From: Negaprion brevirostris
Lineage: Eukaryota
Direction: 5' to 3'
Assembly (NCBI GenBank): GCA_030324005.1
Contig: JARDVH010000149.1
Location: forward strand, 24,111,561-24,175,560
Length of the DNA: 64,000 bases
Part shown: positions 1 through 55,380 of the stretch, piece after piece
How positions within the stretch are numbered: the stretch's first letter is position 1
How the letters are laid out: each line of letters opens with the position of its first letter
Position numbers and translations under genes: made by a program
Notes under the pieces: model-generated
The model's input: only the letters and a program-made list of their open reading frames with translations
Told to the model about the DNA's origin: nothing
Databases searched by the model: none

Positions 1-90
1 AGAGGTAGGTTCTTTACTCAGAGGGTAGTAAGGGCATGGAATGCCTTGCCTGCAGCAGTTGTGGACTCGCCAACTTTAAGGGCGTTCAAA
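1..90 (+). mobile_element. CR1-clade LINE, 3' ORF2 fragment
   Basis: ggtaggttctttactcagagggtagtaagggcatggaatgccttgcc (FFTQRVVRAWNALP) is the CR1 ORF2 C-terminal motif; similar text occurs near 60258. Confidence 0.8.
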
Positions 91-537
91 TTTTGTGATT
101 TTATGATTCTACAGATCCATAAACATTATTGCACAAATTGATTTTTACTTTACATTTCATTTTTGTTATTTTTCATGGCAATTTTTCCACCCAAATCAAC
201 CTAGAGGACTTGCTTGGTCTGTTAACCATCTTCATGGATACCCTTTAACAGTGGTCTTGGTTGACCTTCAATGTTAGCACATTTCACTAGGAGTAAGCAA
301 GCCTGTCCAAATGCTTATTCCTTTCCTCCAAAGATAGATCATTTACGAGTGATTAACGTTTCTGTAGGAGATTCTGCTCATCAATCAAAACTGGAGTTCT
401 AAAAATTTGGATTTCCTAATAAGGCGTTGTTTTAATATTATTGTAACGTAAGTATGCAGTGATGCAATGAGAATGTGTTTGTGTCAGCTCTGGAATCTAT
501 AGCATTGTGATCTAATGCAATCATTTTATGTTTTCAG

Positions 538-615
538 GAGTGCACAACTGCAGCCTTTGTGGGAATAGGTTCTCATATTATTCTATTCTTTGGAAACACA
601 AGCTTCTTCATGGAG
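538..615 (+). CDS. Internal coding exon of unnamed C2H2 zinc-finger gene (1 finger)
   Basis: Acceptor ttttatgttttcag|, donor GAG|gtacat, 78 nt, phase 1-1. Translates VHNCSLCGNRFSYYSILWKHKLLHG (C-x2-C-x12-H-x3-H). Confidence 0.8.
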
Positions 616-1020
616 GTACATTTTCCTTCAATTCTTTAAGCTAATTGAGGAGACTAAATTTTAGCTAATGTGAAGAATGATGTTTCTTCACTATAAGCAT
701 ATTTTCTTTGCTGAGTTCATTAGATTGAAAACATTGATTAGGAAGTGCATATTTTTCTGTTATTTTCCAGATGAAGCAAGATCTCAGATTTCTCAAACTC
801 TGTCTTTTCTGTAGAATTATTTAAAGACAGGACCAGAAAAGAGCCTGGTGATACCCAGGCTGATGGGTTGAAAATCGTCTCCCATTAGTCGTCAGTGCTG
901 ATCCCCAGTGTTGGACAGGGTTTTTGAGGGAGGCCTTACTGGACTCAATTAAAATTTCGTAAAAGTTGACAGGAAAAGTAGAAGACACAGATCCAGACTG
1001 CCATTTTGTACTTAATTGCT

Positions 1021-1511
1021 GGATGTAATGGAACCTACGAGGGAGCGAACTATCTTAGATCTGGCACTGTGTAACGAGGCAGGTAGAATTAGGGATCTTC
1101 TTGTGAGGGATCCTCTTTGGGATGAGTGATCATAGTATGGTTGAATTTCTGATGCAGATGGAGGATGAGAAAGTAAGGTCTCGAACATGTGTCCTCTGTT
1201 TGAGCAGAGGGAAGTATGATAGGATGAGAGCAGAATTGGCGAATGTAGATTGGGGGCGCAGATTGGTTGGTAGGATGGCTGAGGAACAGTGGAGGATTTT
1301 TAAGGAGATCTTTTTCAGTACTCAGCAGAAATATATTCCGATGGTAAAGAAGGNNNNNNNNNNNNNNNNNNNNNNNNNNNNNNNNNNNNNNNNNNNNNNN
1401 NNNNNNNNNNNNNNNNNNNNNNNNNNNNNNNNNNNNNNNNNNNNNNNNNNNNNGGGGCAGGCTCGAAGGGCTAGATGGCCTACTCCTGCTCCTATTTCTT
1501 ATGTTCTTATG
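1021..1511 (+). mobile_element. CR1 LINE (endonuclease end plus 3' terminus, middle lost in N gap)
   Basis: EPTRERTILDLALCNE and SDHSMVEF are APE-domain C-terminal motifs. After the gap comes the CR1 3' end ggctcgaagggctagatggcctactcctgctcctatttcttatgttcttatg. Confidence 0.85.
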
Positions 1512-1915
1512 AAAAAAGTGTCTTCTCTCTTGGGAGAGCTGTGCAAATGGGGCATCTATTCATCTTGTAGAACAGTAAACAAAAGGAGCAGAGACAGGAA
1601 AGTTAAAAAATGGGACATCTGTGAAAATCCTACCCAGTTGGTTTGAGAGCGACTTTTATTGGGTGGACCTAACCTACAGTGACTAATACAACATTATCAA
1701 GCTGCTTTCTTATTTAAGTTTTTTTTTGTTTGCAGTACATATGTAGCGTGGATCAAGGAGCCACTTTTGGTTGGAGTTCTGAAATGACTAGAGATTTGAG
1801 TGTACAGTAGACTAGCATATAGTACTGATAAAATCATTTAGTTTTATTTACAAGCTTCTAGCTTATGAATGGACCGCATGTAAAATAAGCTCGAGAAATG
1901 TTCTTTTACTTACAG

Positions 1916-2089
1916 GACGAAAGAAACACGTCTGTCTACTGTGTGGATCAGGCTTTTTCCGGTCAAAGGATTTGGATACTCATTTCAAGTCAGAACACTT
2001 TCAGGTCTTTATGTTCAAGTGTCCACATTGTGAAAAAGGTTTCAACCGACTGATTGATGCTCAAAAACACATAATTGTTAGGCATACAG
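1916..2089 (+). CDS. Internal coding exon of unnamed C2H2 gene (2 fingers)
   Basis: Acceptor ttcttttacttacag|, donor CAG|gtaagt, 174 nt, phase 1-1. Translates RKKHVCLLCGSGFFRSKDLDTHFKSEHFQVFMFKCPHCEKGFNRLIDAQKHIIVRHT (two HX4H fingers). Confidence 0.9.
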
Positions 2090-3632
2090 GTAAGTTTACA
2101 GGTGACAAGATAGGACTTGCTTCTTCAAAACTGAGAAAATCTTTAGTNNNNNNNNNNNNNNNNNNNNNNNNNNNNNNNNNNNNNNNNNNNNNNNNNNNNN
2201 NNNNNNNNNNNNNNNNNNNNNNNNNNNNNNNNNNNNNNNNNNNNNNNNNNNNNNNNNNNNNNNNNNNNNNNNNNNNNNNNNNNNNATATAACTGGTAGCT
2301 CAATGATATATAACTTCTTGGTGAAACTAGATCTACACAATTTTGAATACTACTTGGCAGTAGAAGCTCAAAAGAGTGCTTGTTCCTTGCTATTTTGTCC
2401 AGAAGTTAAGAAACAACATGTATGATGATTGCTGTTGGAATCCCCGTGATAAATGGCCCTGAAGGGAGAGGGTTCTTGTCAAAACTTAATTACTAGCTAC
2501 AAATTGGACCTAACCTAGATGAATTATAAGACCTTGAGAAGAACCAAGATACATTTGGACACTAGCATCGCAACATTAAATCAACCAGTTAAAGATAGAA
2601 CAGATTTGCACTCAAGAATGCCCTCATGTTCTCAGGATATCACAAAATGCTTCAAAAGCCAATACGTTACTACAAATGCAGTCATTGTTTGTTGGCAAAA
2701 CTACACTTGCTTTTTTTATGCAAGGTCCTTCCCAAACACAAAACTGAAATGATCAGCAATTTAAATTACAAGAGGCATTCCTTTGGCTTTGATAAAAAGC
2801 TGCGAGGTAATAGAAATCAGAGCACACCATTATTGCATTGTACGAATATGTCAAAGGAGCAGTTTTGTACAGTTGCTTATTTTTGATGAATGTCGATTAG
2901 GAATTCATGTCTACAATGCTAAAACCCTGTCCCTGAGCCAAGAACCGAGCCTTATGAAGTGGCCCCTAGAATCTAGTTGACAGCTATTTACAACACTGAA
3001 CAAAGAGCATGGACAGTCCAATTAAAAAGACAACAAAGAAATTGCTGCACAGTTATATTAAGATCCAGAAAAAACTATCAGTTTTCAACAGAAAAATCCA
3101 AGCTTCAGAAGTTCACAAAAAAATATTGCCCTGAGTATTCCTTCAAATGTTCTTGCCTTTGTACAGAGTACAGGCATTCTCAGTATTCCGGAGAAATGGC
3201 TTAATAGGACTCAACAACACAATGCTTAATCAGTCCTAGCTCACGCTGTCATCAGTTGACAGCAGTACCAGGTATTGAACTTTCTGGGTTGAGGACCAAG
3301 CAGAAAGCAAGACAAAACACTGCTTGAACGTCTGGAAGCCAAAGCTGATGCACAATTCTGGTAGAGGATTTTTATATGCAGGCCTTGACATAAGAAATGC
3401 ATAATGCAAGGAGAATACAGGAACTAAACAAGGAAGTAAATATGGACATTGTAAAAATACATTGCAAGAGCAATATTTACTGCATCTGTTTGTGAAGTCT
3501 GTCTCTGACTGACTGATAGTATACCCAGCATCTTGTAACTGTTCAGACAGTACACTGCAGTCAAACCATCATCAGAGTATAACAATGTAAGTCATTGCTG
3601 AAGTGTTATTTGAGAGTGGGTCAAAGAAGTTA

Positions 3633-3930
3633 GGGCAGCGTGGTTCCAGAATGGCTCACACTGCTGTCTCATAGCATCAGGGCTCTGAGCTGAATTCTGG
3701 TCCTGGGTGACTGGAGTTTGAACATTCTCCACATGTCTGCGTGCTTTCCTCTGGGTGCTCCAGTTTCCTCCCACAGACATGCAGGTTAGATGGATTGGCC
3801 ATGCCAAATTGCCCCATTGTCTCCAAAGATGTGTAGGTTAGGGAGATTAATAGGATAAACATATGGGATTATGGGGATAGGACAAGAGTAGTCTGGGGTA
3901 AGATGCTGTGTCGGAGAGTCAGTGCAACTC
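3633..3930 (+). mobile_element. tRNA-derived SINE (HE1/V-SINE-like)
   Basis: Degenerate tRNA-like head, then the core ggagtttgaacattctccacatgtctgcgtgctttcctctgggtgctccagtttcctcccac...ggttagatggattggccatgc shared by many copies in the window. Confidence 0.8.
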
Positions 3931-4317
3931 CTTGCCACCAGCCTGAACTTACCCAACCCCCAGGACCCTGGCAGCAACTCAGGGACAAATGACTATTGGA
4001 CCTCCTTGATCACCCTTCTCTCTCTCTCCCCTCCACCCCCCCCACCCAACCGCCCAAGATGCAGTAACAAGGTGTCAGCGCCTTGGTACATGGCCTGAAT
4101 GAGGACCTGAGGGGGAAGTGGGCTGAATGAGGTCTGTGTGGGATCAAATCACCCTTATATCTGCATGTTATGTGGGGGTGGGGGGGCAGGGTGGGCAGGG
4201 TGACCCATTATTTAAGGGTTTGGGGCTGATACTCTTCTGAAAAGTTGGTGGTACTCCCCTGAACTCTTGGGGTGAAGCATGCCAGGTGATGAGCAAAGCC
4301 TGCCCAGTGCAGTTCTC

Positions 4318-4480
4318 ACAGTAAGAAGTCTGACAACACTAGGTTTAAGTCCAACCAATTTATTCGATAGTAAACACACAAGCTTGTGAGTTTACTATCA
4401 AATAAATCGGTTGGATTTAAACCTGGTGTTGTCAGACTTCTTACTGTGTTTACCCCAGTCCAACATCGGCATCTCCACAT
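4318..4480. mobile_element. Short palindromic Penelope-like terminal insertion with 13-bp TSD
   Basis: 4317-4448 is a 132-bp palindrome (5 mismatches in 66 pairs). cagtgcagttctc occurs at 4305-4317 and 4481-4493. Family assignment is from recalled similarity to shark Penelope termini. Confidence 0.75.
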
Positions 4481-4727
4481 CAGTGCAGTTCTCGCCAGGG
4501 TACCAGGTGCATAGTGCAGGGGTGGGTGGGGTGTTGTCAACTTTGTGCATTAATTGGTTGCCACCTACTTGGGGCGTGAACCTGATCAGGGCCAGCAAGG
4601 TGGGTGAATCCTGATTTTAGCCCTGACACCTAATCCAGTGGGCAATCGAGATTCCCACCATCAGTGAATTGGACCGGTGGATCCCCCATAACGTAGCACC
4701 TTCATATTAAATGTATTTAACTTTCAG

Positions 4728-4817
4728 ATTTGGAGAACTTTATTTGTCGAATTTGTAACACAAACAGCGAGACAGCTTCAGAACTTCAGAATCACATCAA
4801 AAAGTTCCACTCCCCAA
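4728..4817 (+). CDS. Internal coding exon of unnamed C2H2 gene (1 finger)
   Basis: Acceptor tttaactttcag|, donor CAA|gtaagt, 90 nt, phase 1-1. Translates LENFICRICNTNSETASELQNHIKKFHSP. Confidence 0.88.
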
Positions 4818-5164
4818 GTAAGTGAACTCAAGTTTGTCATCAGTGACAAGTTCATGACTTTTGAAAAAAAGTGTAATTGTTCATTTGGATATCTTCTAAC
4901 AGTGTGCCTATCTATTATACAGTCTGTTTTAAATGTATTAAATTTTACTTCCATATCCTGGAGTATACCCTGTCCCACCAGCAGAATGCATCTATCAGGT
5001 GTGGGAGCAGGCAGGCGAACACATGAAATCTCATAGTATCAGGTCAGACCTGGGCAAGGAAACACCCTGCTCATTACCACCTATTGCCCTCATTCAGCTG
5101 ATGTAACAGTGCCCCACCATGTTGAAAACCTCTAGGGAGATTCATTGAGGGTAGCAAAGGTACA

Positions 5165-5841
5165 GAAGACTAAAGAAATGTGGCATGTCAACTACGACTC
5201 TCAACAACTTCTACAGATGCACATACAACCATAAAGAATGCTTTCTATCACGGCTTGATATGGCTGTTGCTCTGCCTAAGGCATCAAGGAACTATAAAAG
5301 TAGGGGAATGTAGCCCAATCTGTTACGCAAACCAGCCTACTATCCATTGACTCTGACTACACTTCCAATTGCCTCGAAAAAGCAACCAGCATAATTAAGG
5401 ACCTCATGCACTCCAGGCACACACAGTTCCACCACCTTCTGTTGGGAAAAAGATACAAAAGTCTGAGGTTACGTCAAACCGACTCAAAAACAGCGTCTTC
5501 CCTGCTGCTGTCAGGCTTCTGAATGGACTTATCTTGCATTAAGTTGATCTTCCTCTACACCCTAGCTATGACTGTAACACCACATTCTCCACTCTCNNNN
5601 NNNNNNNNNNNNNNNNNNNNNNNNNNNNNNNNNNNNNNNNNNNNNNNNNNNNNNNNNNNNNNNNNNNNNNNNNNNNNNNNNNNNNNNNNNNNNNNNTCTT
5701 GCATTAAGTTGATCTTCCTCTACACCCTAGCTATGACTGTGACACTACATTCTGTGCCCTCTCCTTTCCTTCCCTATGTATGGTATGCTTTGTATAGCAC
5801 ACAAGAAACAATACTTTTCACTGTAAATACATGTGACAATA
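5165..5841 (+). mobile_element. Rex1/Babar-like LINE, 3' fragment
   Basis: RRLKKCGMSTTTLNNFYRC resembles the Rex1 ORF C-terminus. Ends in the pentamer tail aaatgaaatgaaatcaaa. Confidence 0.7.
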
Positions 5842-7793
5842 CTAAATGAAATGAAATCAAAGCCAGGTGATCAACCCTGGTTCAAGAAGAAGTATGAGCG
5901 AATATGCCAGGAGCAGAACCAGGCATAACATGTTTGAGATGCCACTGTCATTAAGGTACAACACAGGACTATTTGTATGCCATATTGCAGAAATAGCATG
6001 CAACAGACAGAGCTAAGCGATTCCACATCTGATCAGATCAAAGCTCTACAGCCCTGCCATATCCATTTGTAACTCGTGGCAGACATTTAAACAACTCACT
6101 GGAGGATGAGGCTGCACAAATATCCCCATCTTAAATGTTGAGAGACTAACACCAGTGTGAAAGACAAGTCTGAAGCATTTGCAGCCACCTTCAGCCAGAA
6201 GTGCCAGGCCATCTTGGCCCTGTCCTGAGATCCATATCATCACAGATGTCAGCATTCAGCCAATTTGTTTCACTCCATGTGATATGGGGCAGCGTGGGCT
6301 CGTTGGGCCAAAGGGCCTGCTTCCCGGGCTGATTTTGTTCTTTGTTCTTTATATCATGAAATGGGTGAAGGCACTGGGTAATGCAAAGGCTACAGGCCCT
6401 GACAACACCATGGCTCTTGTGCTGAAGACATGCTCCAGAACTAGCCATGCTTCTAGCCAAACTATTTCAGTAACTACAACATTGGTATCTACAAAGCAAT
6501 GTGGAAAATTGCCCTGATATGTATTGCATGCAAAAAGTAGAGCAGATCCAATCCAGGCAATACTACCCCATCTGTCTGCTCTCAGTCATAGCAAAGTGAC
6601 GGAAAGTATCGTGAATAGTATTAACAAGCCACACACAGCAATAACCCATTCATTTATGCTTGGCTTTCGCTCCTGACTTCATTTTGGCTTTGTTCCATAC
6701 ACTGACAAAAAAGATGAGGTGAGTGACTGACCTTAACATAAAAACAGTGTTTGACCGAGTGTGATGTCAAGGAACCTGAGCCAAATTGAAGTCAGTGAGA
6801 ATTGGGGAAAAGCTCTGATGATTACACTCATACCTACCATAAAGAAAGATATCCGTCATTGGAACCAATCATCTCAGTCCAAGGAGATCGCTGCAGGAGT
6901 TACTCAGAGTGCTATCTTAAACCCAACCATTTTACCTGCATCAATAACCTTCCTTCCTTTATAAGTTTAGCAGTGTTCATCACCATTTGAAACTCCTTAG
7001 ATACTAAAGCAATCGTAGTCCATATGTAGCAACATCTGTACAACATTTAAACTTGGGCTGATATATAACAAGTAACATTCCTACCACACAGCTGTTAGGC
7101 AGTGATCAATTCCAACAAGAACGNNNNNNNNNNNNNNNNNNNNNNNNNNNNNNNNNNNNNNNNNNNNNNNNNNNNNNNNNNNNNNNNNNNNNNNNNNNNN
7201 NNNNNNNNNNNNNNNNNNNNNNNTGTTAGGCAGTGATCAATTCCAACAAGAACGAACCTACCCACATCCCCATGACATTCAACAGTGTTACCATTGCAGA
7301 AACCTCACTATCAGTAACCTGGGGCTAACCACAAACCGGAACCTGAACTCAACCAGTTGCACCAGCCAGTACTGTGGCTATAAAAGCCAGAGGCTGGAAA
7401 TTCTGCAGCACCTAACACAGTATCTGACTCCTCAAAGCCTGTTCACCACCTACAAGGCACAAGTTGGGACTGTATTAGAAAACTCTCCACTTGACTGGAA
7501 GAGTATTGTTCCAACCTCAAGAAGCCCGCAACACCAAACAACACAAAACGGTCCATCCAATTGAAGCCTTTTCCATCAACTTTGCATTGGTGGTGGTGGG
7601 AGTGAATGCTTAAGTGGCAGCAGTGTTCATCTACAAGATGCACTGATAGCAACTCACCAAAGTTCCTTCTACAGCACCTTTCAAACTCATGACCTCTACC
7701 ACCAAAAAAAGACAAGCACAGTAGATTGGTGGGAACATCATCACCTGTTAGTTTTCCTCCACACACATCAACTTGACTTGGAACCATATTACT

Positions 7794-8052
7794 GGGCAGC
7801 ATGGTGGCACAGTGGTTACCCTTGCTGCGTCACAGTGCCAGGGACCTGGATTCGATTCCTGGCTTGGGTCACTGTCTGTAGAGTTTGCATGTTCTCCCCG
7901 TCTATGTGGGTTTCCTCCAGTTTCCTCCCACTAGTCTAAAACAAGTGCTGGTGCATTGACCCAAACACGCACGGGAATGTGGCGACTATTTCACAGTAAC
8001 TTCTTTGCAATTTAATGTAAGCCTTACTTGTGACTAATAAATAAACTTTACT
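7794..8052 (+). mobile_element. tRNA-derived SINE
   Basis: ggcagcatggtggcacagtggtta (A box), ggattcgattcc (B box), V-SINE-like core, tail taataaataaacttt. Confidence 0.85.
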
Positions 8053-9249
8053 TTTTAACTACTATTCCTTCATTGTCACTGGAAATGCTGGAAAACTGAC
8101 ACCATTATGGATTAACTGGAACAGTTTAAGATGACATCTCCCCACCACCTTCTGATGGCCAACTAAAGGACGGACAACCGGTGCTGACTTTGCCAGTGAC
8201 TCCCACATCCCATGAAATAATTAAAAATAATCCTTGGACAAAGCGGAAAAGGTTGCATTACGAAAAACTATATCCAAGCTTCCTGCACGAGGCTGTCTGG
8301 GAAATAAGCTGGAGTAAGTCACTTACCTTCAGGAATATAGATTAATATATTGGCAGCATTACTGTTGAGAAAGGAATAGTTTTCCACATTAAACAACCAG
8401 GTAGTGACAGGAAATACCTTCAGGACCAAGTGAAGCATGGCAGATGCAGAAAAATAGTTACCCTGTTATTCTTCCATTGTTTGAGTTTTAAGCTCATTTT
8501 TAAAGATGTGCCCATTTCTGTTACCCGAGTGTCATTTTCATTCCCAATTTTGGGATTGGATCCTACATTGGGGAGGGATAGACTAATATTTGGCTCTTTT
8601 AGATTGAAGAATTCAAGTTAGATTCAAATTCAGGTCAGAGTCCTGCGTGCTAACAAAATGCACCATGTAGGAAATATTGTAATGAAACTGAGATATTGAT
8701 TACTTTATCTTCTCATTGATACTCTAATGCTTTTGTTTAGTCCAGATTTTAGTCAATTGAAACCTTCCACAATAAACATTGTAAAGAACCATTATTTTCA
8801 GACAAAAAATTAAAAATCAATAAATCAGTCATGAGTTGTCCCAAAACGCTTCTGCCTTTACTAGGGCAAATCATCAGTGATGAGAATTATATACAGCTCC
8901 TCCAGCTAACTTCCTCTCAGATAAAAATGTTTTTTTTTGCCATAGTAGTTTGGTCATGATCTCTCCAAAACCCTGCTCTTGTTGGAAAGAGATTTTAACT
9001 CAACAGTTGTGCAATAGTAAGAACTGAAACATTATTTCTCCTTCATTCCAAACTTTGTTGTCTTACCACTAAGCTAGTCGGGTTGCAAATCTCTGGTAAC
9101 CTTGATATCTTTTGTCAGCAGACATTTGTTCCTGTGTTAATCAGTTGGCTTTCTCCTGCATTGTGCTTAATCTAGTGGTGCTTTCCTTCATTAATAGTGG
9201 TGTTGACAAACTTCTCTTTTGCATATCTTGAGAAATAAACTGCTGCCTA

Positions 9250-9975
9250 GTTTGATTTGATTTATTGTCACATGTATTAACATAGTGAAAAATATTGTTT
9301 CTTGCATGCTATGCAGACAAAAACATACCGTTCATAGAAAAGGAAACAGGAGAGTGCAGAAAGTAGTGTTATAGTCATAGCTAGGGTGTAGAGAAAGATC
9401 AACTTAATGCAAGGTAAGTCCATTCAAAAGTCTGACAGCNNNNNNNNNNNNNNNNNNNNNNNNNNNNNNNNNNNNNNNNNNNNNNNNNNNNNNNNNNNNN
9501 NNNNNNNNNNNNNNNNNNNNNNNNNNNNNNNNNNNNNNNTGTAGAGAAAGATCAACTTAATGCAAGGTAAGTCCATTCAAAAGTCTGACAGCAACAGGTA
9601 AGGTGGTGTTTGAGTTGGTTGGTACGTGACCTCAGACTTTTGTATCTTTCCGCAGGAAGAAGGTGGAAGAGAGAAATGTTTGGGATGTGTGGGGTCCTTT
9701 TAATTATCCTGTTTTGCCGAGGCAGTGGGAAGTATAGACAGAGTCAGTGGATGGGAGGCTGGTTTGTGTGATGGATTGGGCTACATTTACAACTTTTTGT
9801 AGTTCTTTGAGGTCTTGGACAGAGCAGGAACCATTACCAAGCTGTGATACAACCAGAAAGAATGCTTTCTATGGTGCATTTGTAGAAGTTGGAGAGTCAT
9901 AGCTGACATGCCAAACTTCCTTAGTCTTCTGAGAAAGTAGTGTTGGTGGGCTTTTTAGTGGCAGCATGGGGGAAT
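9250..9975 (-). mobile_element. Rex1/Babar-like LINE, 3' fragment (antisense)
   Basis: Reverse-complement homolog of 5165-5841, e.g. gtcatagctagggtgtagagaaagatcaacttaatgcaag; tail tttgatttgattt. Confidence 0.75.
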
Positions 9976-10063
9976 CCCTACAGAGACTTAATGATTGAAT
10001 TGATCTGAAGTTTTGGATAAAATTGGTCTTAAGCTTTTTGTGTGTTGGAAGTTCTTTGATATT

Positions 10064-10465
10064 GCTGTAACTAGTGGGGTGCCACAGGGGTCAGTCCTTG
10101 GACCTCAACTGTTTACAATCTATATAGATGTTCTGCAAGAAGAGACAGAACGTAACATAGCAAAACAGGTGAAAAAGCAGGTAGTGAAGAGATAAAGATT
10201 TTACAGATGGATGTAGATTGTAGGTAGGCTAGGAGAATAGGTCAAAATTTGGCAGATAGTGTTTAATGTAGATAGGTGTGAGATGACCCATTTTGGCCAA
10301 AAACACAGGCAAATTATCGAAATGGAAAACAGATTCAAAATGCATCTGTGTCTTTATGAATCACAGAAAGTAGGTATGCAGGTATAGCAAGTAAGTAGTA
10401 AAAAAGGCAAATGGCAGACTGTTTGAAGGGCTGAATTGCCTACTTTTGCTCTTAAGTCCTACATT
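10064..10465 (+). mobile_element. Degraded CR1 LINE RT/3' fragment
   Basis: [20 protein letters not shown] motif; 3' end gaagggctgaattgcctacttttgctc. Confidence 0.8.
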
Positions 10466-10828
10466 GTTCATTCCCAATTTGCTTCTCAACCACAGGGTGT
10501 GCTCTTTCCCACATTCACCATTCAGTAAAGCAGTTCTCTGTTGATCGCATCAGTTGCAAGACTGATATGCGTCTTTCAGCAGAACTGGCAACTGTATCAT
10601 AGAGTTGATGTTTTACATAATTGTCACATGTTTGCATCTATAATATTGTGCCCTTTTTGTTTTCCACTTAGTTATTTACTAGTTGTTTTATCTCAGAGTG
10701 GTGTTTAGTTCCAGTTTTAATTTAGTTTTGGAAGTTTTTGTTTCTCAGGCTAGGTTTTTTTTGAAACGAGATGTAATGACTTTGCTTCTCAAAAGGTAAA
10801 AGCTTCTTTATATATTTTTTTTAAACAG

Positions 10829-10902
10829 AAGCCCCTTGCAATCACTGTGACTTTCCATTGGGAAATAAATTGCTACTGCAGAGACACATGGGAAAACATT
10901 GA
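10829..10902 (+). CDS. Last coding exon of unnamed C2H2 gene (1 finger, stop)
   Basis: Acceptor ttttttttaaacag|. In phase 1 it reads (K)APCNHCDFPLGNKLLLQRHMGKH, with TGA at 10900-10902. In frame with exon 4728-4817. Confidence 0.85.
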
Positions 10903-11304
10903 AATAATTTGAGTAAGTATTCCAAGAAAAATGCATTATCACCTGTGAACCATATGTAGATCACGGGATTACTTTAAGCATTCTATCAAAATAAGATTCA
11001 TGCAATCAAGAGTGTCTAGTGAAACAAGAAAGAATGACCTGTTCTTTTTTCTTGGATAAATGATGAAGAGACATAACCCAGTTTATTGAAATAAGGATAT
11101 AATTGATGTGGATGGGAGCAGCTGTTTGACATATACTAAGTGCAGAACTAAAGAACAAAGATACAAAATTAAACAAGCTTCAGTTGAGTTGGAGATCAAT
11201 ATAAGAACTGAATTGCAGCAGAAAGCAGCTGATGGACATACCAAGCACTACTGGGAACAGGATTTGAGATATGGGAGTTAATAAAATTAGTCAGAGCAAA
11301 GTGA

Positions 11305-12190
11305 TTAAGCCCATTCTCATCCCCGTTCTCTGCTTTTTCCCCATAACTCCTGATCTCCTTATTAAACAAGAATCTATCTATCTGTCTTAAAGATACTCAA
11401 TGACCTGGCCTCTCAGCCTTCAGTGGCAAAAAGTTCCTCAGATTCATCACACTCTGCCTGAAGAAATTCTTCCTCATCTGTTTTAAAGGATTGTCCTTTT
11501 AGTCTGAGGTTGTGCCCAGATGTTCTAGTTTTTCCTACTAGTGGAAACATCTTCTCCACATCCATTCTATTCAGACCTCACAGTGTTCTGTATGTTTCAC
11601 TTAGAGCCCCCCCCCCTTTATCTGATTTCCTAAGCATTTCCCCATTTAGAAAATAGTCTGTGCCTCCATTCCCCCTTCCAGAGTGCATAACCTNNNNNNN
11701 NNNNNNNNNNNNNNNNNNNNNNNNNNNNNNNNNNNNNNNNNNNNNNNNNNNNNNNNNNNNNNNNNNNNNNNNNNNNNNNNNNNNNNNNNNNNNTCTCTCT
11801 ACATATCTTTGTGTCATCTGCAAACTCAGCAACAGTGCCAACAGTTCCTTCTTCCAAATCATTAATGTATATAGTGAAAAGTTGTCCCGGCACGAACACG
11901 AGGCACACCACTAGTCACTAGCTGCCATCCTGAAAAAGACCCTTTTATCCTCACTGTGCCTTCTGCCAGTCAGCCAATCCTGTATCCATGCCAGGATTCT
12001 ATCCTTAACACCATGGGCTCTTATTTAAAAGTCTCCTACACAGCATCTTGTCAAAGGCCTTCTGAAAATCTAAATAAATCATGCCCACTTGTTCTCCTTT
12101 ATCTAAGTTCCTTGTTGCCTCCTCAAAGATCTCTAACAGATTTGTCAGACATGACTTCACCTTGATGGTCCTTTTTTAATCATGCACTTC
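11305..12190 (-). mobile_element. CR1 LINE RT/3' fragment (antisense)
   Basis: Minus-strand ORF PGQLFTIYINDLEEGTVGTVAEFADDTKIC (RT ADD motif). Confidence 0.85.
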
Positions 12191-33780: not shown

Positions 33781-35297
33781 CTATTGCAAGTTTGATCTCA
33801 AAAACATCAGTTTGTTCACCACCTCAGGTGTCAGCTGGCCTTTTTGCTTTCCTGAAAATGTCTCACCAAAATTATTCATACAGTCACTTCTTGCACCAAC
33901 AGCTGGCACAGCCAAAAGCCAAAAGGCAAGTTTGGCTAACTTAGGATGCTTTTGAGTGGCATTTGACCAGTAACTGAACAAGTCTACAGTTTTATTGGGC
34001 ACAGGTTCCTTTAAATATTGAAATACTTCATCTTTTCGCTCATCCTGGTTCACCTCTTTCTTTGGTGATGCTTTCAGATTTTCATTAATCCCACACATTT
34101 TCTTTCTTGCAGGTTCAAATTCAATGACATCTTCACGAGACTGTCCAATGTCTGAAATCATTTCACAAACTCTATTGATTACCTCTTCTTGTTGGTAGTG
34201 TGGCACAGACCTCAAATGCTTCAGATGTGGGTCAAGGACCATTGCTACTTTGTGGGCAGTCTCCACTTTAAAGTTCTCCTTTAAAGACTCCAGAAAAAGG
34301 TGGCACAGTTTACTTACAGTGCCAGCATCATTAGCTTTGGAAGTGAAAAGTTTCTCTAATTTCACGTAGGTTGGGAGCACAAGCTGTAACGTTGGTTTGT
34401 TTTCACAACTCAGTTCTATTACAGCCTGTTTTACTGGAGCCAGAATGGCTGTAAGGTTGCTCAACAAACTTTTATTGCAGTTTTGGAGGTGCTTGAGTTC
34501 CTTCCTTCCACTGATTAATTCTCGTAACTGCTCATACTTCTCATGTACAAGGAGAAGAGAATCTGCAACAGAATTCCAGCAACAAGGGACCTGCTGCCCT
34601 TCAAGAAGGCTGGATAATTCTGGAGTGACGGTGCCTTGTTCCAGCGAACTCATTAACTGTATACAGTTACTCACAAGTTCAGTAACTTCTGGCATGTTTT
34701 GTGCCTGCAATGTCCTTTCATTAAGTACACTCCTTACTGTTGAGTTTAATGCACAAGCTGAACATCGTAGGCACATTCCAGCTTTCAACAGTGTGGCTGA
34801 ACTGACTTTGCTATCCGTGACATAAATTGTTCGCATCTCTGACATGACAAATTCTGAAAGTACATTCAACACCCACTGGTGAACCTGCTCACCAGTTTCT
34901 TTGCCATCTACTTCTTTAATGCCTAGGACATATCTCTTCATTTGCAATCCCTCTACCTGATGTGCTGTTAGAATGTAGTAGGACTCTGAGCCAACATTCT
35001 GACAATGACAGGTGACACCTATTCCCCAGCATGCATTGCTTCCAAGTGCGCATGTGACTTTTACCTTCACCTGGTTGTACATTCTGGGCAGATGTTTCAG
35101 AGCAAGTGTATTCATGTTCCCAAGGATGTCAGCGACAGGAAAGGATCCATAGCGAGCACCAACATCAACAAGTGTCTGAGCAAGTTTGACAAAGTCTTTT
35201 CCATTTATCACAGTCAGTGCGTTCAGGTCAGAACACATCACTCTGAGCAACTTTTCAGCAATGAGTTGACGTTCTTTTTCAAGGACTGAGCTATTCA
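33781..35297 (-). CDS. ZNF618: ZNF618 terminal coding exon: domesticated hAT transposase-like RNase H fold plus hATC dimerisation domain
   Basis: Uninterrupted ORF of about 505 codons with recognisable ZNF618 blocks (TLALKHLPRMYNQVKVKVTCALGSNAC, RCSACALNS, PTLQLVLPTYV, KANDAGTVSKLCHLFL, KLAKLAFWLLAVPAVGARS, NKLMFL). Acceptor ttattttcatttgcag| at 35298, phase 1; stop TAG at 33783-33781. Confidence 0.97.
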
Positions 35298-36654
35298 CTG
35301 CAAATGAAAATAAATCATTATATAAACAACTGCAATTTATAAAGATGCTTCCCGATAGCTACACAATGCTCTGATATTTATGTCAATGTTTCTGTTTAAT
35401 CATTTCCCTTGCCTATTTCATCAAGTTAATGAAAATGTTATCATGTGCACTTGCATACAAGCTGTTCAAAGATTTAAATAGGGGAATGGGTCGCAGGAGA
35501 GGCAGAGTTGGTGTGGAGAGTGGAACTTCATTAATACAAAGTAGATATCAGCAATATAGCACATATGCACAAGGATTCAAATTTCTGGGAACCAAGAGCA
35601 ACTGTGGTCAATAAGCTGGCCCCTCAAACTACTGCAAATATGAATTATGTCTAAAGCATCCAACTGGATTTTAAAAAGATTTTACTGGGCAACATCCCTT
35701 AAGAAGCTGTTCGCCTTAAGAGATCAGAAATTCAAAATTTTCACTGAAAAGACAGAACTTGGTAACTGCAGCATCTCAAGCAGCACAGTCAGCAAGTAAA
35801 GTCAATCTGAAAAACATAAGAATTAATTGCCACTGAGGAAAACCCCAAGCCTTGAAGAACAAATCTAAAGTTGATTGCAGACAGCCCCCTATGCCCAAAC
35901 CCATTTAATACCATATCCATCCAAATTAGTTACAAATGCGTTTTTAAAGCAGAATAAACTTTATACTCTGTGTAAGGTTTTTTCTTACTTTGTTACTATT
36001 AATCTTCTTTCAGCTCAAATTAATGATGAATTTTACCATATATTCTTGTTTAATCTAGGGAGTAATTTAAATTATAGAGACTGATAATTACTTGATGTAT
36101 TCTACTTAAAAAATGAAAATGCAAACTAGACCAATACTTTGTCAGATCACTGGCAACTAATAATCCAGTATTGTTTTCAACTCACGCATATTGCTTTGAA
36201 TATTAGATCTACCAACCTAGCTGCTGCATTACAAGACACATTCATGAAAAACGTCCTAAAATTTGAAATGAAGGAACTTCTGCTAAGTTTCAGCACTGCA
36301 TTATGCTAAACTTCATATATATATTATACAATATTTTTCTACTTGTTTTTTGTTTAGGTAGAAAGTGGAGAATAGGATATCATATATGCATGACATTTCC
36401 TATACGAGTATACATGCCATTACAGTGCTTTGACTAAAAATATTTGTTGCTTTGCTTCATTTAACTGAATACTTTTTTTGGAACAAATTTGAAAGAAAAA
36501 TCAAATCAAACATACAAATTGGACAAAGCAGATAACATACAATCCAGTTATGTTACTTTAAATTCAATATACTTTATTAAGCAGGCTCTTGCAAAAAAAA
36601 AGTACCTCTCACATTTTTCTTAGAAAAATTATTTTAGCTGTTCCCACATAATTT

Positions 36655-37304
36655 AACTTTGCGTCAGTATTCACGAAGGAGAGGGACTTGTTGTCTGGAA
36701 ATGTCTTGGAGGGAATTGTTGACCCGTTGGAGAAAATATCCATTACAAGGGAGGAAGTGTTAGGGTTTTTAGGTAATATTAAAACTGATAAATCTCCGGG
36801 GCCTGATGGCATTTATCCTAGGCTGCTTAGGGGGACGAGAGATGAAATTGCTGGGCCTCTGACGCAAATCTTTGTCTCTTCTTTGGATACAGGTGAGGTC
36901 CCAGAGGACTGGAGGATAGCTAATACGGTACCGCTGTTTAAAAAGGGCAGTAGGGATAATCCTGGTAATTATAGGCCGGTGAGTCTGACGTCAGTGGTAG
37001 GAAAGTTGTTGGAAAAAATTCTTAGGGATAGGATGTATGCGCATTTGGAGAGTTGTGATCTGATTAGGGATACTCAGCATGGCTTTGTTAAAGGGAGGTC
37101 TTGCCTTATGAATCTGGTAGAATTTTTTGAGGAGGTGACAAAAACGGTTGACGAAGGACAAGCCGCTGATGTCATCTATATGGATTTCAGTAAGGCGTTT
37201 GACAAAGTCCCTCACGGTAGGTTGGTAGAAAAGGTTAAGGCTCATGGGATACAGGGACAGGTATCTAGATGGATTGAAAACTGGCTAGGTAACAGGAGAC
37301 AGAG
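36655..37304 (+). mobile_element. Young CR1 LINE ORF2 (RT) fragment
   Basis: Stop-free frame: KSPGPDGIYPR, VPEDWR, GNYRPVSLTSVVGK, QHGFVKGRSC, YMDFSKAFDKVPH. Cut off by an N gap; a CR1 3' end follows at about 37490-37627. Confidence 0.93.
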
Positions 37305-37986
37305 NNNNNNNNNNNNNNNNNNNNNNNNNNNNNNNNNNNNNNNNNNNNNNNNNNNNNNNNNNNNNNNNNNNNNNNNNNNNNNNNNNNNNNNNNNNNNNNN
37401 NNNNCTGATTGGTGTTAACAAATTGTCCCTAAATTAGACCTTCCTTAATCTGGCACACATATAATTCTCTAAATTTGCACACCTTTATTGTGGAGTCCTA
37501 GAGGCGTAGACAAAAGTCATAGGTAGAAGGAGGATTGAACGAGGCACTCACTGAATGTTAAAATGGCGGCGCAAGCTTGTACGGCTGAAGGGCGTGTTTC
37601 CTGTGCTGTGTTGTTCTTTGTTCTTTATAATTTCTCATTTAGCTTTCACATACTGAGGTGAGCACAAATGTGAATTTTAAATGAGAATCATTTACTTTTC
37701 CAATGTTTGTCTCCCTGTATTAATGATTTCCTGAGACAAGTGCTAAATGACCACTTACTACTCCCCCACCCCCACATGAAATACTGCTAAACTGAACCTT
37801 ACATCGAACCCATTTTGTACTGCTGTCAAGTGTGGTGCTGTTCAATACACTTAACATTTTGTTTTGATAGAGATTAAAATTAGAAAAGGAAATCCAGATC
37901 CAAGCTCAGGCAATACTAATATATTCATCTTAGAAACTCCAAGCACTTCTTCCCACATTTGTCCAGCACTTCAACATTAGACATAC

Positions 37987-38151
37987 CATCATTTGTGCAA
38001 TTGCTCTGGCGATGTGCATTCTTCTTCTCTGGAGAAGCAGCAGCAACAGCTGTAGTCGTAGTAGCAGTAGCAGAAGTAGAAGTGGATGTAGTGGCAGCAG
38101 CAGTGCGAGGTGTCTGTACTTGTTTAATCGCTAAGCTGTTTTCATTATCAG
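37987..38151 (-). CDS. ZNF618: ZNF618 linker exon with Thr/Ala/Ser-rich tract
   Basis: Acceptor tttcttttactctag|, donor ATG|gtatgt, 165 nt, phase 1-1. Reads (A)DNENSLAIKQVQTPRTAAATTSTSTSATATTTTAVAAASPEKKNAHRQSNCTND(V); ADNEN matches ZNF618. In frame with both neighbours. Confidence 0.88.
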
Positions 38152-41470: not shown

Positions 41471-41548
41471 CTGTGTGGGAATGCATGTGCTCTATTAGAT
41501 TGTTATAAAACTGGAACTGAATTCCACATGCCCCACAGGTGTATTGCT
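41471..41548 (-). CDS. ZNF618: ZNF618 C2H2 finger exon
   Basis: Acceptor ttttctgttccatttaag|, donor CAG|gtaagg, 78 nt, phase 1-1. Reads (E)QYTCGACGIQFQFYNNLIEHMHSHT, near-identical to the last ZNF618 finger. Confidence 0.95.
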
Positions 41549-47860: not shown

Positions 47861-47950
47861 CAGAGGATGCATGCAGAGCCACATGTTCCTGGTAGGGAGT
47901 GTAATACTTGTAACGCTTGCCACAGTATTCACAGATGTAGCTACCTGTTT
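47861..47950 (-). CDS. ZNF618: ZNF618 C2H2 finger exon
   Basis: Acceptor ttttgtttcattgttccag|, donor CTG|gtatgt, 90 nt, phase 1-1. Reads (K)TGSYICEYCGKRYKYYTPYQEHVALHASS. Confidence 0.95.
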
Positions 47951-52149: not shown

Positions 52150-52230
52150 TTGATCCAGGGCTGCGAACAGTTTCTTCCACTTGTTCAGTTTTTACCTCTG
52201 CTGGTGTCTCAACTGCATGATCGTAAGGAT
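52150..52230 (-). CDS. ZNF618: ZNF618 linker exon
   Basis: Acceptor cctttttttaattatag|, donor CAA|gtatga, 81 nt, phase 1-1. Reads (D)PYDHAVETPAEVKTEQVEETVRSPGS(K), compatible with recalled human DPFDQGVVATDEVKEE...GPK. Confidence 0.88.
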
Positions 52231-55290: not shown

Positions 55291-55380
55291 CATCGACTGC
55301 GTGCAAATCCCGGTGTTCTTGGAAACAGCTGTAATATTTGTATTTTTTGCCACAGATGTCGCACATGTATCTAAAATTCT
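55291..55380 (-). CDS. ZNF618: ZNF618 C2H2 finger exon (most 5' exon found in window)
   Basis: Acceptor cttcctcccttgattttcag|, donor ATG|gtatgt, 90 nt, phase 1-1. Reads NFRYMCDICGKKYKYYSCFQEHRDLHAVD. Confidence 0.96.

Follow-up and report, generated by a model that had tools for sequence, protein, structure and literature searches.

What is the zinc-finger gene that lies tail to tail with ZNF618 in the lemon shark (Negaprion brevirostris), and could it be a relative of the part of ZNF618 that hosts a hAT transposase domain? The question is raised by a 64,000-nucleotide stretch of contig JARDVH010000149.1 (C149, positions 24111561-24175560; hereafter the window), in which a first-pass annotation had described an unnamed C2H2 gene facing ZNF618. 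Our preferred explanation, to which we give a probability of about 0.55, is that this is a single-copy spliced gene of about 23 small exons, that its front half is a sister copy of the host half of ZNF618 produced by a local inverted duplication, and that ZNF618 later gained the hAT domain as its last exon. Taken by itself, paralogy between the unnamed gene and the host half of ZNF618 is likely, judging from sequence comparison.

Four coding exons of the unnamed gene lie in the window:
538..615, plus strand: exon of finger 5, a YYS-type finger (78 nt, phase 1-1)
1916..2089, plus strand: exon of fingers 6-7 (174 nt, phase 1-1)
4728..4817, plus strand: exon of finger 8 (90 nt, phase 1-1)
10829..10902, plus strand: last coding exon, with finger 9 and the stop codon (TGA end)

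The four exons have AG/GT ends, are in phase 1 throughout and join in frame to encode five C2H2 fingers, exactly as the first-pass annotation had described them, and the gene is real and spliced. The junction 615>1916 is joined in contigs of all four runs considered (three studies), and the junction 2089>4728 in contigs of three of the four; the status of these runs as RNA is the tool's guess, none being on record as RNA, and the junction contigs differ from the window sequence by about 3%. The contigs cover exactly 1914-2089 and continue into the end of exon 538-615 and the start of exon 4728. Joints were scored on a repeat-free stretch; over 1-12000, repeats filled the joint table. A lack of spliced reads over these junctions had been named beforehand as a refutation. 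Two junctions are joined in RNA-like contigs; 4817>10829 was not seen as a joint in the contigs and is backed by a Mustelus RefSeq protein that is 96% identical over all 137 amino acids and by contig depths that are equal at all four exons in runs X3 and X6. Finger 9 is the least conserved finger of the gene and has no match in the aligned proteins of coelacanth, bichir, bowfin, sturgeon and lungfish. The last exon is also variable across sharks, several RefSeq models stopping or continuing differently past finger 8, and annotation divides the whale shark gene in two.

The earlier account was thus correct yet incomplete, since the gene has about 23 coding exons and the window contains no more than its last 4. 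The whole gene encodes about 690 amino acids with nine fingers, arranged as two isolated fingers, one pair and then a rear cluster of five. When Mustelus and three other shark proteins were mapped to the 200 kb upstream, about 19 more exons were placed, the first of them 57 kb ahead of the window. The following are of particular use here, all outside the window:
C149 24054516-24054714, plus strand: first coding exon, with the motif EIAFLVGEDG
C149 24063167-24063238, plus strand: likely decayed finger exon
C149 24077527-24077610, plus strand: exon of finger 1 (CxxCGKxYKY type)
C149 24090808-24090894, plus strand: exon of finger 2 (CxxCGKxYKY type)
C149, ending at 24093848, plus strand: linker exon, the point where horn shark isoforms run into a hAT segment
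C149 24101445-24101615, plus strand: exon of fingers 3-4

Phase 1-1 boundaries were found at 15 of the 19 upstream exon matches, in finger and linker exons alike, and the remaining four had no boundary pair under the criteria used. The exon at 24063167-24063238 aligns to the first YKY finger of bony fishes; in sharks it has lost one Cys, and it is likely a decayed finger kept as an exon. The gene is single copy, other genomic matches to fingers 6-7 being at most 47% identical. Two family proteins exceed the curated Pfam zf-C2H2 cut-off of 25.2 bits (P0002, 89.8 bits; P0015, 117.4 bits), and the same scan of these two found no hAT, KRAB, SCAN or BTB domain. Canonical TGEKP linkers are absent from the finger isoform, in line with the first-pass annotation; the lack of a hAT domain, which it had also reported, holds in the lemon shark finger isoform but not for the horn shark annotation described below.

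The exons of ZNF618 run on the opposite strand, across the window and beyond its end:
33784..35297, minus strand: terminal hAT exon (phase-1 acceptor; Pfam Dimer_Tnp_hAT over cut-off and a weak Hermes DNA-binding domain)
37987..38151, minus strand: likely linker exon preceding the hAT exon (165 nt, phase 1-1; the best candidate judged by similarity to teleost ZNF618)
41471..41548, minus strand: exon of finger 4 (78 nt)
47861..47950, minus strand: exon of finger 3, YKY type (90 nt)
52150..52230, minus strand: likely linker exon between fingers 2 and 3 (81 nt, phase 1-1)
55291..55380, minus strand: exon of finger 2, YKY type (90 nt)
C149 24179264-24179341, minus strand, beyond the window end: exon of finger 1
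C149 about 24193909-24193938, minus strand, beyond the window end: motif EICVVIGEDG

Kinship between the two genes had first been argued from exon layout. The layouts do match those of ZNF618 exons 41471-41548, 55291-55380 and 47861-47950, but we rejected them as proof: the finger exons of both genes all share a general build. In the H-T-G-E-K-P-Y-x-C linker, phase-1 introns usually fall at this very place, 4 nt past the last His of one finger and 17 nt ahead of the first Cys of the next. The argument is weak because this position is usual in linkers and because the non-finger exons are phase 1 too. A finger pair with 9 of 21 matching positions, including YYS, had been offered as well, and the count is correct, but 4 of the 9 are zinc-binding Cys and His, and 15 of 787 unrelated background fingers score as high; this pair was likewise set aside as proof. 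As a block, the four window exons score 34 and 29 bits against teleost ZNF618, and many unrelated finger proteins reach up to 79 bits.

The stronger evidence lies outside the fingers and in the front half of the gene. An N-terminal non-finger motif reads EIAFLVGEDG in the unnamed gene, EIAFVIGEDG in its coelacanth counterpart and EICVVIGEDG in shark ZNF618, and within the unnamed family the EIAFLVGEDG-type motif is a conserved island in the N-terminus. A matrix of 18 columns, built from the unnamed family alone, ranks the shark ZNF618 site second among 297,255 six-frame windows of the 464-kb locus, behind the gene itself, and three other choices of motif block give this site ranks 2-4. The ZNF618 site outscores all 181,385 non-finger windows of 247 background proteins, and about 0.0004 matches would be expected by chance in the ZNF618 motif exon.

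A rare finger type is common to both genes as well. The exact codon pattern of CxxCGKxYKY has nine matches in 2.69 Gb (reversed control, 0), five of which fall in the unnamed gene and ZNF618, within 102 kb; the other four are broken fingers within longer frames of the multi-finger type. Just one of 4,266 background fingers fits CxxCGxxYKY. Compared with ZNF618 finger 2, fingers 1 and 2 of the unnamed gene beat all 4,266 background fingers, and compared with ZNF618 finger 1 they beat all but 4. A broken CGKxYKY finger occurs in finger-array frames on four contigs; three of the frames end in it and clearly belong to one family.

These features bear on the simplest alternative, that an unrelated old C2H2 gene happens to adjoin ZNF618 and resembles it by chance or convergence. 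There is little signal in short fingers, exon layout of this kind is generic, the window exons are no closer to ZNF618 than to ZBTB11-type proteins, and the feature search in the Atlas, given the coelacanth front half, leads to generic C2H2 finger clusters and not to ZNF618. Yet such an accident would have to bring two independent rare features together in adjacent genes (five of nine YKY matches genome-wide within 102 kb, and a motif ranked second of 297,255), and no ortholog in another named family was found in protein and profile searches. We give it little chance. The first-pass annotation had named a clear ortholog in an unrelated, known zinc-finger family as an observation that would refute kinship with ZNF618, and none was found.

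The front halves also resemble each other in profile comparison. Aligned to each other, the front-half profiles of the two genes score 132 (E 4e-18, 39% identity over 93 columns), against 49-91 for nine control sets, and motif and fingers are collinear, in the same order. With a profile of the ZNF618 front, the coelacanth protein gave the best single-stretch score (45.7 bits) among the non-ZNF618 proteins fetched; the next, unrelated protein reached 38.6 bits. In the finger-level tree that the first-pass annotation had proposed (23 columns), one model joined ZNF618 fingers 1-3 with the finger-5 class (support 94.8 in the Shimodaira-Hasegawa-like approximate likelihood ratio test, bootstrap 75, one run), but the second did not. 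The approximately unbiased test neither rejected the joint clade nor showed it (p 0.28, 23 columns). The background fingers in these trees had been picked as the closest to ZNF618, a bias against the joint clade.

With so few columns the trees are indecisive, and several other results count against paralogy. At the shark ZNF618 site, a hidden Markov model of the motif scores no more than 7.6 bits (E 1.8 among 13,404 frames), and teleost ZNF618 keeps the first half of the motif without the EDG end, with marginal or no score (expected 0.04-0.43). The YKY pattern was chosen after both genes had been seen. ZNF618 ranked only 119-120 among the 176 matches to the coelacanth front half, and it was absent from the 13 matches (E up to 10) to the shark front half. 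ZNF618 finger 4 lacks a clear counterpart, since 13 of 4,266 background fingers do at least as well as its best family match. In general, fingers group by gene and not one-to-one, and the linkers cannot be aligned between the two genes. The Atlas result given above also belongs here.

Grouping by gene and dissimilar linkers are what one would expect if two unrelated neighbours had exchanged single phase-1 exons (the YKY finger, perhaps the motif) by exon shuffling or gene conversion, each then multiplying its own finger. Symmetric phase-1 exons would ease such an exchange, and this shark is the only species in which the ZNF618 motif was seen in its full GEDG form. The collinear alignment, in which the order of motif and fingers agrees between the genes, is not accounted for in this way, and two separate exchanges are less simple than one duplication; we regard exon exchange as quite improbable.

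We therefore return to duplication as the preferred explanation; its direction is another matter. No jawless-fish or invertebrate outgroup was found, and because of this the direction is unrooted, a further point against the history that we favour. The earlier proposal of an old paralog or finger-only relative of ZNF618 is supported, mostly by evidence outside the window, and either gene may have been the donor. In the reverse direction, a ZNF618 that already had its hAT exon would have been duplicated, and the copy would have lost that exon and gained or grown the rear finger cluster. Motif, YKY fingers and profiles fit this equally well, ZNF618 is the more widely kept gene, and fingers 3-4 and 6-9 have no counterpart in ZNF618. 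Against this, the reverse direction calls for three kinds of event, a capture, a loss and the acquisition of two blocks of fingers; the rear block starts with a YY-S class finger close to ZNF618 fingers 1-3, which fits one ancestral chain; and the genome search found no remnant of the ZNF618 hAT by the sister gene, where 34 of the 264 kb around the gene are N. We consider the reverse direction unlikely.

Under the favoured history, a finger-only gene would have been duplicated locally, likely before sharks and bony fishes split. In the ancestor, the N-terminal motif may have been followed by several isolated YKY fingers, each on a phase-1 mini-exon, and then by more fingers. Introns in phase 1 would allow any transposase that brings a phase-1 acceptor to be spliced in frame after any exon, replacing the rear fingers. 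ZNF618 would have fixed this state, one copy having taken a hAT as its last exon and dropped its rear fingers. A capture of this kind apparently took place again in the sister gene of the horn shark, for which both fusion and finger isoforms are annotated.

Among the RefSeq isoforms of the horn shark, X1-X4 cluster together. In their representative, the motif and two YKY fingers are followed by a 539-amino-acid hAT segment, which is unlike that of ZNF618 and takes the place of the rear seven fingers. Isoforms X5-X8, with accessions consecutive to X1-X4, cluster with the finger form. Dimer_Tnp_hAT scores 25.2 bits in the fusion representative (cut-off 21.4), and its hAT neighbours in the Atlas are of the DUF659/ZBED1 type; a PDB sequence search with the fusion protein gave weak finger matches only, none for the hAT part. 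Judging by its motifs, the segment looks CGGBP-like and appears to lack the last catalytic Glu. The junction corresponds to the phase-1 donor at C149 24093848 in the lemon shark. Hardly any alignment can be made between the horn shark hAT and that of ZNF618 (phmmer 4.4 bits and nothing significant by blastp), so the horn shark capture would be independent, and neither hAT carries a complete BED finger. Based on the annotated proteins, the horn shark isoforms are thus a candidate repeat of the ZNF618 architecture with an independently captured hAT. The fusion appears in 1 of the 11 shark species in the match lists, as annotation only, and a single species' annotation also weighs against the history proposed here.

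In the lemon shark genome, one decayed relative of the horn shark hAT was found at 42.84 Mb on C133, with stops and frame changes. Near the unnamed gene there was no significant match (best E 0.17), with 3,392 N in the relevant intron. This gap (C149 24094898-24098289) lies in the intron matching the horn shark hAT exon, and absence of that exon is not fully shown because of it.

Orthologs of the unnamed gene were found in 11 shark species, coelacanth (E 4e-42), bowfin, bichir, reedfish, three sturgeon species and lungfish. Their RefSeq names are borrowed and differ from species to species for one orthologous gene. A profile search covered 1.84 billion proteins, from which we took the best 150 of 99,500 matches, down to 218 bits; a motif screen of the 147 new proteins among these added three family members (sturgeon, lungfish and whale shark), and none of these best 150 was a family member from tetrapods, teleosts, rays, chimaera or jawless fishes. 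The gene was likely lost in tetrapods, teleosts, rays and chimaera, although diverged members may score lower and close ones may hide in 50% clusters. Blanks in a word-based search carry little weight, as the sturgeon ortholog was absent from the 120 rows shown though within range. The suggestion that the gene is lost or moved in human is consistent with these searches but not proven by them. What can be said is that this is an old C2H2 gene that is neither a ZNF618 ortholog nor a KRAB-type gene.

The unnamed gene is a predicted transcription factor, based on its domains. From shark, coelacanth and bowfin to lungfish, the helices of its paired fingers are conserved as R(-1)/G(3)/D(6) and R(-1)/E(3)/R(6). 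The Zif268 code is the basis for reading finger helix residues as DNA triplets; by this code, fingers 3-4 would read a GC-rich site, about GCG-CNG. Proteins, and not DNA, are the likely partners of the N-terminal motif and of the isolated YKY fingers, which have Tyr at -1 and are separated by long linkers. In some fishes the gene contains more than one paired-finger module: two in sturgeon, three in bowfin and two or three in lungfish.

A wider reading, which we hold only tentatively, is that the finger-only parent form of ZNF618 survives beside it more than 400 million years on, in sharks and non-teleost bony fishes; that it was lost independently in tetrapods and teleosts; that its all-phase-1 chain is a repeat landing site; and that the horn shark gene captured an unrelated hAT in its turn, giving the ZNF618 architecture anew as an alternative isoform. 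Old host-transposase fusions usually lose the parental transcript, which hides the host gene as it was before capture. If the wider reading is true, the ZNF618 parent form survives next door and the capture was replayed in one shark lineage, the states before, during and after one kind of transposase capture are alive in one gene family, and what a hAT domain adds to the same finger module becomes directly testable. The gene would also add an unnamed jawed-vertebrate predicted transcription factor to those apparently lost in both tetrapods and teleosts. Should the gene be real without the kinship, it would be one more uncharacterised zinc-finger gene of the ordinary sort.

As for the neighbourhood, the stop codons of the unnamed gene and ZNF618 are 22.9 kb apart. 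Adjacency to ZNF618 was shown in the lemon shark only. An RGS-domain gene lies 0.62 Mb past the 5' end of ZNF618, on the same strand as ZNF618; RGS3 sits likewise in human, and the shark gene may be its counterpart. A pappalysin-type domain is found 6 Mb off on the same contig. No AMBP-like gene was found near the locus in a search that is a lower bound; as candidates, two Kunitz matches on the contig, 4 and 19 Mb away, were set aside, the nearer one having no second Kunitz exon within 40 kb. Beyond the unnamed gene, two intronless receptor frames face each other: one at L022:7069-8130 (minus strand), closest to GPR34 among solved structures, and one at about C149 23897509-23898530 (plus strand), split over two frames.

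The terminal exon of ZNF618 contains no BED finger and is single copy, a genome search with 200 amino acids of its hAT finding ZNF618 alone. A single-sequence fold of this hAT was set aside (predicted local distance difference test score 39.7). Judging by motifs, a fragment like the reverse transcriptase of long interspersed nuclear elements lies at 36652-37434 of the window, in the last ZNF618 intron, and an antisense open frame in an intron of the unnamed gene (L007:687-1049, minus strand) looks like a hAT catalytic-domain fragment. In the bichir, the zinc-finger genes LOC120535130 and znf618 are placed by PAPPA1 and ASTN2 in PMC11401434; LOC120535130 may be the bichir ortholog of the unnamed gene.

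Among known systems, ZNF618 is the closest. Both genes have the N-terminal EI-x-x-V-I/V-G motif, at adjacent loci, and isolated CxxCGKxYKY fingers, each on its own phase-1 exon, in which helix position -1 is Tyr and the core Leu position is taken by an aromatic residue. They differ in that ZNF618 has four spaced C2H2 fingers and a hAT-derived C-terminus, whereas the unnamed gene lacks the hAT domain and carries two blocks without an equivalent in ZNF618, the paired fingers and a rear cluster of 4-5 fingers; the unnamed gene, unlike ZNF618, was not found in tetrapods or teleosts. ZNF618 has been reported to bring UHRF2 to chromatin, as cited in PMC9181574. In literature searches that had subscription papers and bioRxiv supplements outside their scope, no description of the unnamed gene or of the origin of ZNF618 was met.

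With the KRAB and polydactyl genes from which RefSeq borrows names for these proteins (ZNF91-like, ZNF85-like, ZNF672-like, ZNF729-like, ZNF236 and Xfin-like) the unnamed gene has only C2H2 fingers in common; it differs in having no KRAB, SCAN or BTB domain (two proteins scanned) and no TGEKP linkers, and in spreading its fingers over many small exons. CGGBP and ZBED proteins are domesticated hAT-derived host proteins that arose many times in fishes, according to PMC8097297. They use the transposon's own BED finger, whereas both fusions here lack a complete one and have host C2H2 fingers instead.

A published route to such genes has the transposase captured through alternative splicing and the parental transcript lost afterwards (bioRxiv 2020.05.07.082677). 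In the main text of that work, Cosby et al. survey tetrapods, mostly with KRAB hosts, and describe host-transposase fusions including KRABINER, SETMAR and PGBD3-CSB; ZNF618 has 0 occurrences there, although the supplementary tables may list it. As in those fusions, the transposase here sits on its own exon, and young fusions coexist with the parental transcript, as annotated in the horn shark, whereas old ones mostly do not. Compared with the fusions treated in that main text, the shark locus would differ in that the parental form survives as a separate duplicate gene, and in that a second, unrelated hAT has entered the same gene family.

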